Below, piece by piece: positions 12,521-17,912 of a stretch of 64,000 nucleotides of DNA. The number at the start of each line of letters is the position of its first letter. Position 1 is the first letter of the stretch. The position numbers were made by a program, and so were the translations under genes. The DNA lies in the NCBI GenBank assembly GCA_963666285.1, contig OY762711.1; one strand, given 5' to 3'. This DNA comes from Sedimentisphaerales bacterium. Lineage in GTDB: Bacteria; Planctomycetota; Phycisphaerae; Sedimentisphaerales; SM23-30. The notes under the pieces were generated by a model. That model saw only the letters and a program-made list of their open reading frames with translations, was not told the origin of the DNA and did not search any database.

Positions 12521-13018
12521 GTACGAACGGTCACAGATCGAAACGGAGTAGCCGCGACGGCCTGCGGAATATTCGCGGGCGGATAACGGAGCATAAACGG
12601 CGGGCCGCGGCGCTAGCGCGGCGGGAAGAAGAGCTGAAACCGGCTGAGTCGGCCAGTGGCGTTTAACGGAGACCGGGCGGCGGGCCACGGCGGCTTACGG
12701 CGGGCCAGCGGATTGGCGCGGCGGTGAGAAGAGCTCTTGTGGTATCACGGAATACAAACGGAGAGTATGCGGCGGTAGTGCGGCAGGCCAACGGCGGTAG
12801 TGCGGCGGGCTGCGGAGCTATAACGGCGGAAATTTACATTGAGGCTTTCGGCCTGTTTTTGGGTGTTGGGCAGACCAGATGCCGCGAAGCGGCTTTTAAA
12901 GTGTAAAGGGTAAAATAAAAAGTGTAAAGGAGGTGTTCGCCTGGCGGCTCACAACTTATTTTAAAGCTTTCGCATATTTAAATTCAGAATTATGAAAAAG
13001 ATTGTCAACCACGAAAAT
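12521..13018 (+). repeat. Composite repeat, copy 3, left part, with phased RCGG array (about 12527-12830)
   Basis: Reverse complement of 8831-9353, roughly 85-90% identical by eye. Confidence 0.9.
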
Positions 13019-13137
13019 ACAATGAAAGCCAGAATATTCCTGTAGCATGGCTTGTGTTATAATACACAATAATTTTAGCACGAGCTGTCACAGGGACGCT
13101 CAAATATTTAACCAATTTTATACGGAGTATTCTGGCT

Positions 13138-14184
13138 ATGAAGACTATTATGTCAATTGATTTAGGAAAATTCAAGAGTGTAGTTTGTTTTTATGAGGTA
13201 AAAAGCTGTAAGGCTATATATAAGTCGTTTAAGACTAACCCTCAAGAGCTTCATGACCTGGCAGTATCTCACCCTGCTGATCTTATTGTATTTGAGGCTT
13301 GTGATATCATAGGCTGGATTTGTGACCTTTTTGACACCCTGGAATTAAAATATGAAGTGGCAAATACTAATACCGGCGAATGGTCTGGCAGAAAATTGAA
13401 GAAGAAAACAGATAAAAAGGATGCATTTTGGCTGGCCAAGCGTGCTGCTTTAGGAGATTTATCAACTGTCTATGTTCCTAAAAAGGAAATTCGAGAGAAA
13501 CGATCTTTAATTAATTATCGCCAGAGCCTTACAGAACGGATAACTCAGGTAAAAAATACTATTCGTTCTTTATTAAATGCCCAGGCGTATTCGTTGCCGT
13601 CAGGCAGAAAGTGCTGGTCTAAGCAGAATCTGGAACAGTTAAGAAGTATGGCTATGCCAATGGATAAAGTTAAACCAGATGAGCTCTGGAAAGGCAATCT
13701 ATGGAGCGAGCTTATATTACTGGAACAATTAACAGACGCTTTGCAAGTAGTTGAAGATAAACTGGAAGAGTTAAATAGTACTGATGAAAAGGTAAAACTA
13801 TTACAGACTGTTCCCGGAGTTGGCCCACGTCTGGCAGAGGCAGTTGCAGCTTATATTGATGATCCACATAGATTTAAGAATTGCAAACAAGTTGGCAGCT
13901 ATATTGGTATGACACCGCGTCAGTACCAATCAGGTAATACAGACCGTCATGGGCGGATAAGTAAATATGGCAATAGGTTATTGCGAGCATTACTTGTTGA
14001 GGTTTGCTGGCTGGGTTTGCGTTGGAATCCATGGATAAAAGAAACATACGAAAGAATAAAGAGGGGAAGTAAAACTCGTGCAAAAATAGCGATAGTAGCT
14101 ACAGCCCGACGGTTGTTCGTACGATTGTGGGCGATGATGCGAGATGGGACAAGTTGGCAGATGCCTGAATTGCAAAGTGTTTGA
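13138..14184 (+). CDS. IS110 family transposase/recombinase
   Basis: DEDD RuvC-like domain (IDLGK, FEAC, KTDKKDA); Tnp domain VPGVG and GMTPRQYQSG (catalytic Ser); AIVATARRL. Confidence 0.95.
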   Translation: MKTIMSIDLGKFKSVVCFYEVKSCKAIYKSFKTNPQELHDLAVSHPADLIVFEACDIIGWICDLFDTLELKYEVANTNTGEWSGRKLKKKTDKKDAFWLAKRAALGDLSTVYVPKKEIREKRSLINYRQSLTERITQVKNTIRSLLNAQAYSLPSGRKCWSKQNLEQLRSMAMPMDKVKPDELWKGNLWSELILLEQLTDALQVVEDKLEELNSTDEKVKLLQTVPGVGPRLAEAVAAYIDDPHRFKNCKQVGSYIGMTPRQYQSGNTDRHGRISKYGNRLLRALLVEVCWLGLRWNPWIKETYERIKRGSKTRAKIAIVATARRLFVRLWAMMRDGTSWQMPELQSV

Positions 14185-14229
14185 TACCAATATAAGTAAA
14201 ATATAAATATTACCTATGATTTTGCCCGA

Positions 14230-14380
14230 TTGAAATCGATACGGAACCTTGGTCGTGCATTTGGGTTTTGAACCTGACACGAAAATTAAGCCGTATCGCA
14301 ATATATATAATGGAACCATGGCGTAAAATACAGCCTCGGACACTCCGGATAGAAAGATGAAACAATCAGGTAAATAATGA
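14230..14380 (+). ncRNA. Putative bridge/seek RNA of the IS110-family element (RNA ends uncertain)
   Basis: Stem cgatacgg (14237-14244)/ccgtatcg (14291-14298) encloses tcgtgcattt (14253-14262) and cacgaaaatt (14278-14287), which match the two strands of the insertion target. Confidence 0.75.
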
Positions 14381-14582
14381 TTCGCTACGCGAAAATTGTT
14401 TTAAATAGGTTTATCGCATAAGGTCAAAAAGCAAAAAACGAGGCGGTGTAAAACCGCCCCGGCTTCTTGACAACTTGCAACGCTCGGGTTGCTCCTCAGC
14501 AGAGCCCTATCCTTTGCAAGATAAAGGAATTATAGCAAAAATGAATAAAATTAGAAAATTAATGTTGCATTCTGGCTTCATA

Positions 14583-14711
14583 GAAAATTCACGAAAGAAC
14601 ACGAAAAAAACACTGTTGCTCGCAGAGGCCGCAGAGCTCGCAAAGAATATTATTTGGCCATGAATGGAAAACTTTAAATTAAGAATTCAAAATTAAGAAT
14701 TAAGAAGAACT
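14583..14711 (+). repeat. Composite repeat, copy 3, middle part (9-mer and 7-mer modules) between IS110 and IS3
   Basis: Matches the reverse complement of 8715-8835 and of 6155-6265. Confidence 0.85.
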
Positions 14712-16123
14712 TGTCTGGTCCTGTGATAAGTTGTCACATTATAGATTTAATGTTTTAACAAATAACAGGAGACAACAATGTTGGTAAGTAAACGAACTTA
14801 TAATCGCTACAGCGAAGCCTTTAAATTACAGGTGGTAAATGATCTTGAATCTGGTAAGCTAAGCAGTATTTATGAGGCTAATTCCCGCTATGGGATTTCT
14901 GGTACAACAACAGTAAAGAGTTGGCTAAGAAAATATGGCCGTAACCATTTGATACCAAAGGTGATACGCGTGGAAAAACTAGATGAACAAGATCATGTAA
15001 AGAAGTTAGAATCAGAGATTAAGCAGCTTAAAGAAGCGTTAGCAGACAGCCATATAGAGAATATTGTAAGTGAAGCCAGGTTTCAGGTTATTTGTAAAGA
15101 ATACGGGCTGGATCCCGAGGAGTATAAAAAAAAAGTCGATACCAAACGGTTCAACAAGCGTCCGAGGCAACCGTTGAAAAGAAAGAGGAAAAAATAGCGA
15201 TAACTTCCTTATGCAAAGCTGTTGGCATGAGTCGTCAGAATTATTATAAATCACATAAAGTTCGGCGCAGGCGGCACTATGAAAAAGACCTGATAATATC
15301 TTTGGCCAGGCTGGAAAGATCATTGCAGCCTGAGATGGGTTGCAGAAAGGTTTTGAAGCGTATAAAGCCCAAACTGGCAAAAGCCGGTATTAGTATAGGG
15401 CGAGATAGATTTTATGAAACGATGTCAGAAGCAGATATGTTGATAGAGCGTAAAAAGCGAAGTGTGACAACGACAGACAGTCGTCATAACTTTAAGACTT
15501 ATAAGAATATACTGAAAGATGAAGAGCTTACAGGAGCCAATCAGGCCCTGGTAAGTGATATAACGTACATATATACAGATGAAGGATTTATGTATCTGTC
15601 GTTGATAATGGATGCATTTAGTCGCAAGATAGTTGGCTATGACTGTAGTGATAGTTTGGAAGCAGAAGGTTGTTTGCGTGCATTAACAAAGGCGATAAAG
15701 CAATTGCCCAAAGGTAGTAATACGATACATCATTCAGATCGTGGCAGTCAGTATTGCTGCCATAGATATATAGATAAGCTTAAAAGAAATGGGCTGCGAG
15801 TTAGTATGACCGAAGATAATCATTGTTATGAGAATGCCCAGGCCGAGAGGTTAAACGGTATATTGAAGCACGAGTATGGATTGAAGAATACGTTTAAGAA
15901 AAAAGCTCATGTTCATGCTGCGGTTAAACAGGCGATAGAACTGTATAATACCTGTCGTCCACATTTTGCTTTGGGATATCGTGTGCCTGAGGAAGTGCAT
16001 ATGGCGGCGTGATATATTCCTCCGTTCCGGTCGCCCTTCGGGCTCCCTGCACTACGGAATATATCATCAAAAAACAATAGTAAATAGAAACGGAAAGTGA
16101 CAACTTTAAATCAGGACTTGACA
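14712..16123 (+). mobile_element. IS3-family element, copy 1
   Basis: TG..CA ends; IRs TGTCTGGTCCTGTGATAAGTTGTCAC / GTGACAACTTTAAATCAGGACTTGACA; apparent 2-bp CT duplication relative to the empty allele (reverse complement of 6146-6165). Confidence 0.95.
14778..16012 (+). CDS. IS3 transposase OrfA (14778-15197) and OrfB (to 16012), joined by a -1 programmed frameshift
   Basis: HTH OrfA; A9G slippery run at 15126-15135 with the -1 frame open into OrfB; DDE motifs SDITY, HHSDRGSQY, ENAQAER. Confidence 0.92.
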
Positions 16124-16280
16124 CTGAAAAATACAAGACTGCGATAAGTGCCAATAATTATAAGGTGGCTCGTTTCAGCCTTCGCTAAAGCTATGGTTCA
16201 ACAAGACCGCACGTGATTAATAATTTTGAACCACTGATGCACGCGGATGGACACCGATAAGAAAATGTTTAGAGATAACT
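16124..16280 (+). repeat. Composite repeat, copy 3, right part
   Basis: Near-identical to 54950-55084; the first 50 bp match the reverse complement of 6105-6157. Confidence 0.85.
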
Positions 16281-16350
16281 AACAAATTAAATGCAGTTGA
16301 ACTTCAAACATAGAACAAAAATAATAGTAGTATTAGAGAATGCTGCTTTT

Positions 16351-17912
16351 GGGAGTGTTCATTTGACTGTGTAAATGGTACTATTGGTATAGGCAGAATA
16401 CACTTCTGTCTTGAAATTTACACATTTCTATATTAACTTGTATATTATCGTTCTGAAGGATAGGGCTCTGCTGAAGAGCAACCTGAGCGTCAGAATGATG
16501 CCGAGACAAAAGGCTCTGGAAGAACAAACATTTTCCACGAGCCTTTTATTTTGTTTTGGCTGATAAGCGAAAAACTTATAAAAACAGCTCCGCCAAAGGC
16601 GGCACCTCTTTTATCTTTCAGGCATTCGATCGCCGAACTTGATAGCGAACTGGTTTATCGCCTGATTCCAGCATCTAATTGGCATTGTCCACTTTTTAGA
16701 TATGTTTTCAAGAGCCAAATAGAATATCTTTAAGATCGATGCTTCGCTAGGGAATGCACCTTTAGTTTTGATAACTTTTCTCAGAGAACGATTCAGAGAT
16801 TCAATTGCATTGGTGGTATAAATCGCTTTACGGATTTCTGGCGGATAATCAAAAAACGGTATGATGTTTTGCCAGTTATTACGCCAGCTTTGGCTAACCA
16901 TAGGGTACTTATCATCCCATTTTTGAGCAAATTCGTCCAGAGCCATTTCAGCTTCCTGCTCAGTGGCTGCGGTATAGATTAGCTTTAAATCAGCACATAG
17001 CTGTTTGCGATCTTTCCAGTTAACAAACCGCACTGAATTACGAACCATATGTACAATACATAACTGTACCTGGGTTTTAGGGAAAACGGCTTCTATAGCT
17101 TCTGGAAAGCCTTTTAAGCCATCTATGCAAGTGATGAATATATCTTTAACACCTCGATTTTGAAGCTCTGTAATGATATTAAGCCAGAATTTTGCTCCTT
17201 CAGTTTTAGCTATCCAGATACCCAATAATTCCTTCATGCCATCCATATTTACACCGAGAGCAAGATAAACTGACAAATTGGATACTTTGCCGTCCTGGCG
17301 ACATTTAACAACAATACAGTCAAGGAATACTATTGGATAAACTTCATCCAAAACTCGATTTTGCCAGGATTTAACTTCCTGCATTATACTCTCGGTTGCC
17401 TGGCTGATAAGACCTTCAGAGACATCAACGTGATACATATCCAGAAGACATGCCTGAATATCACGGACACTCATACCACGACCATACATGGCTATGATCT
17501 TATCATTAAAACCTTCAAAATACTTCTCGCCCTTGGGGATAAGCTTAGGTTCAAAGGTGCTGTTGCGGTCACGGGGAGGATTAAGTTCAACTTCGTCAGA
17601 ATCGATTACAACAGACTTTTTACCATTGCCATTACGACTATTGCCACTGTTATTGCCCTTAGGGTCATGCTTGCTGTAGCCCAGATGGTCGCTCATCTCT
17701 GCTTCTAAAGCTCGTTCAACTATTCGTTTTTTGAGCTCAGAAAATAAACCTGATTCTCCCCAAAACTCCTCCGGAGTATTGTAACCTCCTAGAAGCTCAT
17801 CAATTAACTCATCTTTACGTTTGTCTTGTGCCGATCGTTTAGCCATAGTTCTTTACCTCACATTATAGGTTAACAAATCTATGACCATTTACACAGTTTA
17901 ATTTACACCCTC
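16351..17912 (-). mobile_element. IS256-family element
   Basis: IRs GGGAGTGTTCATTTGACTGTGTAAATGGT and GAGGGTGTAAATTAAACTGTGTAAATGGT (rc); 8-bp TSD CTGCTTTT at 16343-16350 and 17913-17920. Confidence 0.95.
16611..17846 (-). CDS. IS256 family transposase
   Basis: NSRNG, PRDRNSTFEP, YPIVFLD, DGLKGFPEAI, QLCIVH, YTTNAIES. Confidence 0.97.
   Translation of the reverse strand: MAKRSAQDKRKDELIDELLGGYNTPEEFWGESGLFSELKKRIVERALEAEMSDHLGYSKHDPKGNNSGNSRNGNGKKSVVIDSDEVELNPPRDRNSTFEPKLIPKGEKYFEGFNDKIIAMYGRGMSVRDIQACLLDMYHVDVSEGLISQATESIMQEVKSWQNRVLDEVYPIVFLDCIVVKCRQDGKVSNLSVYLALGVNMDGMKELLGIWIAKTEGAKFWLNIITELQNRGVKDIFITCIDGLKGFPEAIEAVFPKTQVQLCIVHMVRNSVRFVNWKDRKQLCADLKLIYTAATEQEAEMALDEFAQKWDDKYPMVSQSWRNNWQNIIPFFDYPPEIRKAIYTTNAIESLNRSLRKVIKTKGAFPSEASILKIFYLALENISKKWTMPIRCWNQAINQFAIKFGDRMPER

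Follow-up and report, generated by a model that had tools for sequence, protein, structure and literature searches.

Two insertion sequences of the window carry the same module

The window analysed here, 64,000 nucleotides of contig OY762711.1 (assembly GCA_963666285.1, from a Sedimentisphaerales bacterium with a genome of 6.35 Mb), contains an insertion sequence (IS) of the IS110 family and one of the IS256 family, with an IS3-family element between them. Both outer elements carry, at the 3' end of the transposase gene, a copy of the non-coding module that is the subject of this work (copy A in IS110, copy B in IS256; Table 1). The IS110 element has a short left end, a 400-nt right end and sub-terminal inverted repeats at about 13022-13035 and 14569-14581; the features used to assign it to the IS1111 type were taken from PMC11208160. 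Its transposase (13138-14184) matches PF01548/PF02371 and NF033542 and that of the IS256 element (16611-17846) PF00872 and NF033543; the neighbours are mechanistically unrelated, as the preliminary description of this DNA had stated.

The shared 34-mer noticed in that description (14481-14514 against the reverse complement of 16456-16489) is indeed present, with 2 mismatches, and its region forms an inverted pair of 35 nt (94%; BLAST E value of 2e-8 against the 6.35-Mb genome). Also present are its first motif (14397-14420 against the reverse complement of 16564-16586), the small hairpin, the A-rich linker, which is really a U tract on the functional strand, and the hairpin that differs between the copies. 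The module sits within its element, being carried by 9/9 IS110 and 2/2 IS256 copies of the genome. This genome holds 15 RNA copies in three IS families, the third carrier being a 1621-bp IS3 with 4 copies (one at C1:743486-745106) and a type I RNA in sense. Local gene conversion is ruled out by these 15 copies and by hundreds elsewhere; together with the strong IS association and the lack of a described match reported below, this is the opposite of what, according to the preliminary description, would have spoken against its proposal. No RNA copy and no covariance-model match was found in the IS3 element of the window.

The second IS256 copy (C1:155168-156730) has an RNA core 5 changes away from the 34-mer of the window IS110; some of these changes break stem P2, and this copy is possibly decaying. 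One copy of the 1621-bp IS3 is interrupted by another IS256, itself without the RNA. An apparent 355-bp unit, considered as a miniature inverted-repeat transposable element, turned out to be the end of the 1621-bp IS3, and a flanking inverted repeat was found in 0/14 stand-alone-looking loci.

A tail-docked double pseudoknot maintained by covariation

Domain I of the RNA is a stacked rod composed of P1, an internal loop, P2, a bulge (CUC or CAA over A), P3 and the four-purine loop L3. In type II, the type of the window, the internal loop consists of AGGA over GCG; type I contains an additional non-canonical module. The 3' tail is brought back to domain I by the variable hairpin P4 and docks there by two long-range pseudoknots of 3 bp each. 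P4 is a dispensable insert. The tail, 65-161 nt after P2, corresponds to the first motif of the preliminary description, and the two conserved motifs noted there thus pair with each other as pseudoknots. In copy A, P4 corresponds to its hairpin of different sequence plus its A-rich linker.

Comparison of 51 type II sequences revealed pairing in 92.9% of 714 stem cells and 148 two-sided changes, more than in any of 500 shuffles (0/500) or in any slid control. P3 seems invariant in this set since the search pattern fixed it, and compensatory P3 variants exist in copies found by covariance models. Pattern-found copies overstate conservation; in 43 copies found by models and not by pattern, core positions are 88-100% conserved, two of them reaching 43/43 and 42/43 and many 41/43, with a few rows mis-parsed. 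For pseudoknot 1, between the tail and the 3' internal loop, the pairs are G-C 43, C-G 5, A-U 2, U-A 1 and G-U 1, with 1 mismatch (n=53). Covariation with this pseudoknot extends to the first base of the 5' loop (A with C in 182 and C with G in 76 of 269), as a base triple would give, and type I swaps G-A for A-G (53 and 45 of 99).

Pseudoknot 2 joins L3 to the tail bases after AAA. Tails were found without using loop identity among 251 distinct copies, and both variable pairs are Watson-Crick in 152/160 tailed copies, compared with a mean of 54.1 (sd 5.6, maximum 73) in 10,000 shuffles, a control that ignores the relatedness of loci. Both subtypes share four recurrent loop/tail types, and diverged copies add rarer ones; when the latter are included, all three pairs form in 164/188. 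The window copies themselves differ by a compensatory change, GAGG with CCU in copy A and GAAG with CUU in copy B. Since they share only the core, and their P1 and P4 differ in sequence and keep the pairing, the exchange is old rather than recent. The RNA combines a pseudoknot with occurrence in more than one phylum, features of the "biochemically sophisticated" RNAs of PMC5737381; several positions at least 97% conserved are also among the features named there. Collectively, these patterns make it very probable that the module is a gene for a small non-coding RNA that has its own promoter and a conserved fold.

Strand, promoter and transcript ends

The preliminary description placed the module in sense, downstream of each transposase. 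Instead, the opposite strand is the functional one in both window elements, because promoter consensus, G-U bias, U tract and folding energy all favour it. The RNA gene measures 110-160 nt, and each copy starts right after a host-type promoter, which lies at the right end of the IS and opposes both window transposases. A strict Bacteroidota promoter word is present at 12/29 loci and at 0/29 in a control window; a loose -10 word, defined after the data had been seen, at 98/213 loci versus 13/213. Variable pairs contain 46 G-U versus 14 A-C among 877 cells. The fold is more stable on the functional strand in 133/163 copies, and a tract of at least 5 U follows the linker hairpin in 62/163 (versus 16/163 on the other strand; 41/59 among low-GC loci). 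The sense-strand reading gives weaker folds (-37.7 versus -45.3 kcal/mol for copy A, -39.3 versus -54.8 for copy B) and would place the wobbles, the U tract and the promoter on the wrong side. The promoter of copy A was missed by a promoter scan that requires a -35; that of copy B was chosen with guidance from related IS256 copies, and the scan proposes an overlapping site at 16417-16446. A small reading frame in the tail (AUG-CCU-stop) is not conserved.

The idea of a passenger structured RNA or cis element exchanged between IS families therefore survives in its first half: this is a passenger RNA common to unrelated IS, not a 3' element of the sense-strand mRNA. Since it stands in sense or divergent orientation elsewhere, it represents an independent gene.

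A Bacteroidales IS110 copy (L005) was traced in metatranscriptome contigs of 4 of 18 listed runs. The module region was covered in 4/4 runs and most of the transposase gene was almost uncovered in 2/4; such contigs show neither strand, ends nor level, related elements may share only the module, and the coverage is not proof of expression. One run yielded two contigs with a common end at 2400, inside the tail linker: one has 186 nt and a depth of 109, the other bears an adapter. In 25/156 copies a G-run hairpin directly follows the tail (for example L131, L142 and L387).

Distribution in genomes, plasmids and viruses

The collection comprises about 270 distinct copies and spans eight phyla or more. 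The exact 20-letter core is present at 9 viral and at least 119 genome loci, and the pattern of the window subtype at not fewer than 121 metagenome loci. The 80 listed titles comprise Bacteroidota (30), Acidobacteriota (19), Planctomycetota (15), Verrucomicrobiota/Lentisphaera (4), Cloacimonadota (3), Desulfobacterota/Deltaproteobacteria (3), Proteobacteria (3), Bacillota (2) and Myxococcota (1). Among 401 genomes of its own phylum, 13 contain the exact core, and the reversed control none. Covariance models of domain I, with the centre genome included in each phylum count, matched 18/151 genomes of the own phylum, 28/151 in the phylum of a Desulfosporosinus genome, and 15 and 16 of 151 in that of a Magnetococcales genome. 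The type I model matched 2/151 in the phylum of a Paludibacter genome (Bacteroidota), indicating that the RNA is patchy there despite many pattern matches. One model (R2), whose P1 was one column off in many rows, served searching only. As many as 51 model places lie in a single Bryobacterales genome. In 5,426 E. coli genomes, a BLAST search with one type II query gave no match.

BLAST with the window core returned 27 plasmid and 3 phage records, mostly chance matches. Two plasmid matches carry the core hairpin without a tail (L001, pOR1, 573-592; L002, 212-231); both are small Bacteroidota plasmids, and in pOR1 the core lies between a 51-aa gene and mobilisation genes. A microvirus (L278, PQ006462.1) carries a full domain I in sense at about 1640-1720, in overlap with the 3' end of a gene annotated as hypothetical; a terminator-like hairpin follows, and no tail was found. 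The CAA bulge occurs at 42 viral loci, many of them IS or serine-recombinase elements. A third loop subtype is observed in the gut phage contigs L409, L411, L412, L416, L420, L425 and L441, beside IS256 and a serine recombinase. A compact phage form (7 loci) lacks the terminator-like P4 and has a pseudoknot 1 of 6-9 bp. A terminase large subunit gene follows in sense, 139-564 nt after the motif, at L007, L009, L408, L421 and L445, that is, in 5 of the 13 non-IS phage loci with scanned neighbours. Further loci of the compact form are L291, L418 and L437.

Carriers and their arrangements

The nearest long open reading frames were scanned for 65/85, 57/70, 80/138 and 33/48 candidates, leaving out shorter or shadow frames, and 59 neighbours were typed with NCBIfam; many loci were too short for a neighbour. 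Adjacent transposases belong to IS3/IS481/integrase-core (33), IS110 (19), IS256 (18), IS21 (6), ISL3 (5), ISNCY (3) and IS30 (2), 86 in total; other adjacent genes are tyrosine recombinases (3) and DUF1670 genes (12). The ISNCY model presumably covers IS1202-like elements, and we take IS481 to be IS3-like. Circle formation is listed for IS1, IS3, IS21, IS30, IS256, IS110/IS1111, ISLre2, ISL3 and IS1202 (10.1101/2023.06.07.543989). The 86 adjacent transposases, of families in this list or akin to them, face 2 others, one IS4 and one IS701, both more than 340 nt away, the IS701 being apparently the neighbour of a DUF1670 carrier. DDE_Tnp_1 matches served as background. The Bryobacterales genome contains at least 150 of them, 136 of which are listed, and a listed match stands within 1 kb for 1/51 RNA copies; the genome of the window has 8 DDE_Tnp_1 matches, and 15/15 RNA copies belong to IS110, IS256 or IS3. 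The carriers are almost all circle-forming elements.

The RNA and the neighbouring gene occur in three arrangements, most often convergent, otherwise tandem or divergent. Tandem copies follow 6 IS110, 9 IS3/IS481, 1 ISNCY and 12 DUF1670 genes; divergent ones comprise 4 ISL3 at 38-92 nt and three single cases. Such sense and divergent copies rule against an obligate antisense regulator, and the same tandem copies, with the 4-copy IS3 of this genome, speak against a cis-antisense regulator of the IS, which would be complementary to the transposase mRNA and always antisense to it. IS110 carriers are deeply diverged and mix RNA types and orientations, and a sister of the window IS110 protein (35% identity) is without the RNA, which argues for repeated gain or loss. 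The careful search of the IS256 tree was unfinished, and only the deep divergence was drawn from this tree. There is thus little doubt, judging from these comparisons, that unrelated mobile elements have gained the RNA many times and in any orientation.

At 12 loci (L134, L138, L143, L154, L167, L168, L172, L178, L185, L195, L204 and L207) a DUF1670 gene (PF07900) takes the place of the transposase, with the RNA in tandem and the gene end about 40-67 nt before the core. DUF1670 genes are probably an unrecognised mobile-element family, and the RNA marks them as probable genes of mobile elements.

Relation to known RNAs

As the preliminary description had noted, the module cannot be assigned to a known family. 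Rfam 15 gave 0 matches in the window at the gathering threshold, and relaxed E-values gave no credible match over the motif in the window region and 19 homologous loci. The RNA was named nowhere in the literature searched, and six 20-letter strings occurred in no paper, the comparison covering text outside the alignment archives of PMC8040213 and PMC10690425 and the supplement of PMC11109978. The supplement texts of PMC8040213, PMC10690425 and PMC10085705 gave no string match; table 1 of PMC8040213 lists two Bacteroidales rows near IS110 (HMP2_2819, HMP2_8835). It is very improbable that the motif has already been described, although a partial earlier prediction is conceivable. The RNA is real, widespread, uncatalogued and a cargo of unrelated mobile elements.

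The bridge RNA of IS110/IS1111 elements is, like the module, an IS-encoded structured RNA, located in the right non-coding end of IS1111-type elements; it is read in sense, is confined to its family and carries loops that match target and donor DNA (PMC11208160). The module, in contrast, lies on the other strand here and also occurs in IS3, IS256, IS21, ISL3, IS30 and phages. A separate bridge RNA candidate can be proposed for the window element (Table 1); it contains two words that match the target flanks, at 14253 and 14278, and two that match the element ends, at 14325 and 14349. These guide-like words lie upstream of the module, on the opposite strand, and none occur in 14407-14522; moreover, only 19/86 adjacent circle-type transposases are IS110. 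The module is therefore not the bridge RNA.

MRSC-65-2 is similarly multi-phylum, multi-copy and sometimes near transposases, but it is a single long stem with a UYCCGG repeat, and the available text of PMC11109978 describes no pseudoknot or promoter for it. Hammerhead ribozymes, in any permutation, require invariant CUGAnGA and GAAA blocks (PMC10085705); in the module CUGAnGA is possible only with L3 GAGG or GAAG, in at most 111/269 copies, and type II has no GAAA before P2. The IS10 RNA-OUT and IS200 art200 are small RNAs transcribed from a promoter inside an IS end and pair with the 5' end of their own transposase mRNA; the module, unlike them, lies at the transposase 3' end or in sense, and its tertiary structure is conserved. 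In preQ1-I and SAM-II pseudoknots, as in the module, a 3-bp helix closes the hairpin loop and the 3' tail is A-rich; the module differs by its four-purine loop, the lack of a ligand-pairing pyrimidine, a second docking site and a long inserted hairpin, with no metabolic gene downstream and no Rfam match.

Possible functions

At a probability of about 0.55, the module would represent a new class of RNA, catalytic or directed at the host, whose compact double pseudoknot would be traded as cargo between IS of seven or more families, recombinase elements, plasmids and phages because it would aid any element moving as a DNA circle. A host-type promoter starts the RNA at P1, and the tail returns via P4 to the internal loop and the tetraloop. 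In its host-targeting form, the reading that we tentatively prefer, the RNA would act in trans by binding a host factor that acts on circular or end-processed DNA. Since the RNA shows no dependence on where it lies or which way it runs with respect to the transposase, it could itself be the product; since the carriers share no protein, its partner could be a conserved host factor; and since nearly all carriers have circular intermediates or processed ends (copy-out IS, IS110, recombinase elements, plasmids, phage packaging), the host target could act on such DNA. These three points, namely the RNA as product, a host-encoded partner and help to circular or end-processed DNA, are what we infer. 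By neutralising or recruiting a host protein or signal molecule, the RNA would allow more transposition or better survival of the element, and the three-stranded junction (GGA/AG/GC) might be the binding surface.

Several observations weigh against a host-targeting RNA that acts in trans. The terminator-like U tract precedes the tail that the fold needs, and a terminator-like hairpin after the tail is found in only 25/156 copies, so that the making and ending of a full-length RNA is an unexplained hinge. No tail was found in 91/251 copies, of which 31 are too short and 60 long enough to contain it. The compact phage form holds a fixed position before terminase genes, which suits a role in cis better. 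Most IS3, IS110 and IS256 elements do without the RNA, also within this genome. The carrier counts come from related loci and are not independent, and DDE_Tnp_1 is the sole background family.

The catalytic form of the broad interpretation, a new small self-cleaving ribozyme, seems possible but rather unlikely. Here, after read-through of P4, the tail would dock as the substrate and be cut in the linker between the pseudoknots; the cut would end the small RNA and release a downstream RNA with a 5'-OH, in phages the packaging mRNA. Pistol, twister and HDV are the small self-cleaving ribozymes suited for comparison. The module resembles such ribozymes in its size, multiple pseudoknots, an A-rich strand across a stem and its association with selfish elements (PMC10085705), and a core of about 60-70 nt with two pseudoknots in many phyla is an expected trait (PMC10085705, PMC5737381); indeed, a 50-80 nt core with pseudoknot and covariation is what we observe. 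That P4 is dispensable and that 131/156 copies have no terminator after the tail would also fit. The two L005 contigs ending at 2400 give a weak hint, but they come from one of four metatranscriptomes, have no defined strand and also agree with exonuclease trimming or priming bias. On the other hand, no permuted forms were seen and the promoter stands at P1 in every case; termination upstream would yield nearly the same 5' product; no Rfam ribozyme matches; and, with a core 88-100% conserved in the model-found copies, the CUC/CAA bulge varies.

It is unlikely, though worth weighing, that the module is a nascent RNA that binds RNA polymerase in the manner of phage HK022 put, promoting read-through at the heads of phage packaging operons or across the IS circle junction. 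The put RNA is about 70 nt, highly folded, contains a triplex and lies directly after a phage promoter, and putL binds the beta' zinc domain (PMC9378689). The module likewise always begins at a promoter, phage copies included, the terminase large subunit gene stands downstream in sense at the phage loci given above, and the conservation of a tail past a terminator-like hairpin implies that read-through is frequent. However, put forms two stem-loops in a V, has a narrow range and a demonstrated polymerase contact (PMC9378689), whereas the module is a tail-docked rod with a double pseudoknot, spread over many phyla and mostly on IS. Convergent and divergent copies would drive antisense and tandem copies sense transcription, with no common use, and the tail required for the fold comes after the internal terminator.

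Control by a ligand that would set termination at P4, and hence how much antisense RNA reaches into the transposase gene, appears improbable. A promoter, an aptamer-like domain, a terminator and a convergent transposase are indeed combined in both window copies and at most loci, and the module resembles preQ1-I aptamers in its H-type pseudoknot with an A-rich strand. This scheme does not accommodate the tandem and divergent copies, nor tertiary contacts that need post-terminator sequence; copy B ends before the transposase stop, and inspection revealed no conserved alternative pairing. A conventional riboswitch is disfavoured by the lack of consistent downstream genes: what follows is the end of the IS, a transposase gene in convergent orientation or genes of various kinds.

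ColE1 RNA II provides the model for another reading, very doubtful in our view, in which the RNA would prime second-strand synthesis of the element circle or form an R-loop origin. In its favour are the restriction to circle-forming elements, the copies on small plasmids and a microvirus and the G-run hairpin after the tail in 25/156. Against it, circles of IS110 and recombinase elements arise by recombination, and the 3' tail is locked in the fold. The replication model cited primes with a DNA 3'-OH (10.1101/2023.06.07.543989), and the literature search yielded no such case. A selfish or neutral hitch-hiker of IS non-coding ends, of no gain for its carrier, is equally doubtful: patchy carriage, repeated gain and decayed copies such as the second IS256 copy would suit it, but promoters adapt to each host, tertiary pairs are maintained and neither terminal repeats nor free mini-elements were found.

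If the broad interpretation of a catalytic or host-targeting RNA holds, the module would be either a new self-cleaving ribozyme or the first RNA serving unrelated transposons against or through a common host factor. The IS-encoded RNAs known to us each serve one family, as partner of its transposase, nuclease or mRNA. A gene for an RNA that moves among DDE, DEDD and recombinase elements and phages, preserves its tertiary contacts from phylum to phylum and avoids cut-and-paste families would point to an as yet unnamed host pressure shared by circular intermediates. Its short length, natural compensatory variants, compact phage form and carriers in gut Bacteroidales and Bacillota make these possibilities directly testable.

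Features of the window

Table 1. Positions of the RNA copies, their parts and the surrounding elements in the window
Feature	Position	Strand	Basis or remark
IS110-family element, IS1111 type	13015..14586	+	9 genome copies and their common ends; limits approximate to a few bases
Candidate bridge RNA of IS110	14225..14365	+	limits inferred; right-end placement as in PMC11208160
Copy A, small 3' hairpin after tail	14381..14393	-	weak terminator-like, both strands
Copy A, tail	14407..14419	-	GCG 14417-14415 pairs with 3' internal loop (pseudoknot 1)
Copy A, tail AAA and CCU	AAA 14412-14410; CCU 14409-14407	-	CCU pairs with L3 (pseudoknot 2)
Copy A, P4 with lower stem closing it	14423..14471	-	terminator-like hairpin 14461-14439 with U tract
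Copy A, domain I (the 34-mer)	14474..14520	-	covariation in 51 type II sequences
Copy A, P1	14520-14514/14480-14474	-	
Copy A, loop AGGA and opposing loop GCG	14513-14510; 14483-14481	-	
Copy A, P2	14509-14505/14488-14484	-	bulge CUC/A
Copy A, P3 and L3 GAGG	14501-14498/14493-14490; L3 14497-14494	-	
Copy A, extended -10 promoter element (TG-n-TATAAT)	14529..14537	-	read from sequence; position supported across homologs
IS3-family element between both carriers	14711..16123	+	transposase typing, genome comparison
IS256-family element	16351..17912	-	terminal inverted repeats, 8-bp target duplication
Copy B, promoter	16411..16439	+	inferred; -35 16411-16416, 17-nt spacer, -10 16434-16439
Copy B, domain I	16447..16499	+	folding z -7.7 on this strand
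Copy B, P1	16447-16456/16490-16499	+	
Copy B, loop AGGA and loop GCG	16457-16460; 16487-16489	+	
Copy B, P3 and L3 GAAG	16469-16472/16477-16480; L3 16473-16476	+	P2 present
Copy B, P4	16500..16560	+	long hairpin, U-rich 3' side, sequence unlike copy A
Copy B, tail	16567..16577	+	GCG 16567-16569, AAA 16572-16574, CUU 16575-16577
Copy B, closing terminator-like hairpin and U-rich tail	16590..16618	+	just before transposase stop region

Upstream of the IS110 element, GC-rich degenerate direct repeats of 19-39 nt are present at 12578-12840. The IS110 targets a dispersed repeat, for which the candidate bridge RNA has the guide-like words; pieces of this repeat lie at 12900-13020 and 14580-14700 and have numerous matches elsewhere in the genome. 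The GC hairpin at the end of the window IS3 (16010-16066) resembles the G-run hairpin that follows the tail in other RNA copies.

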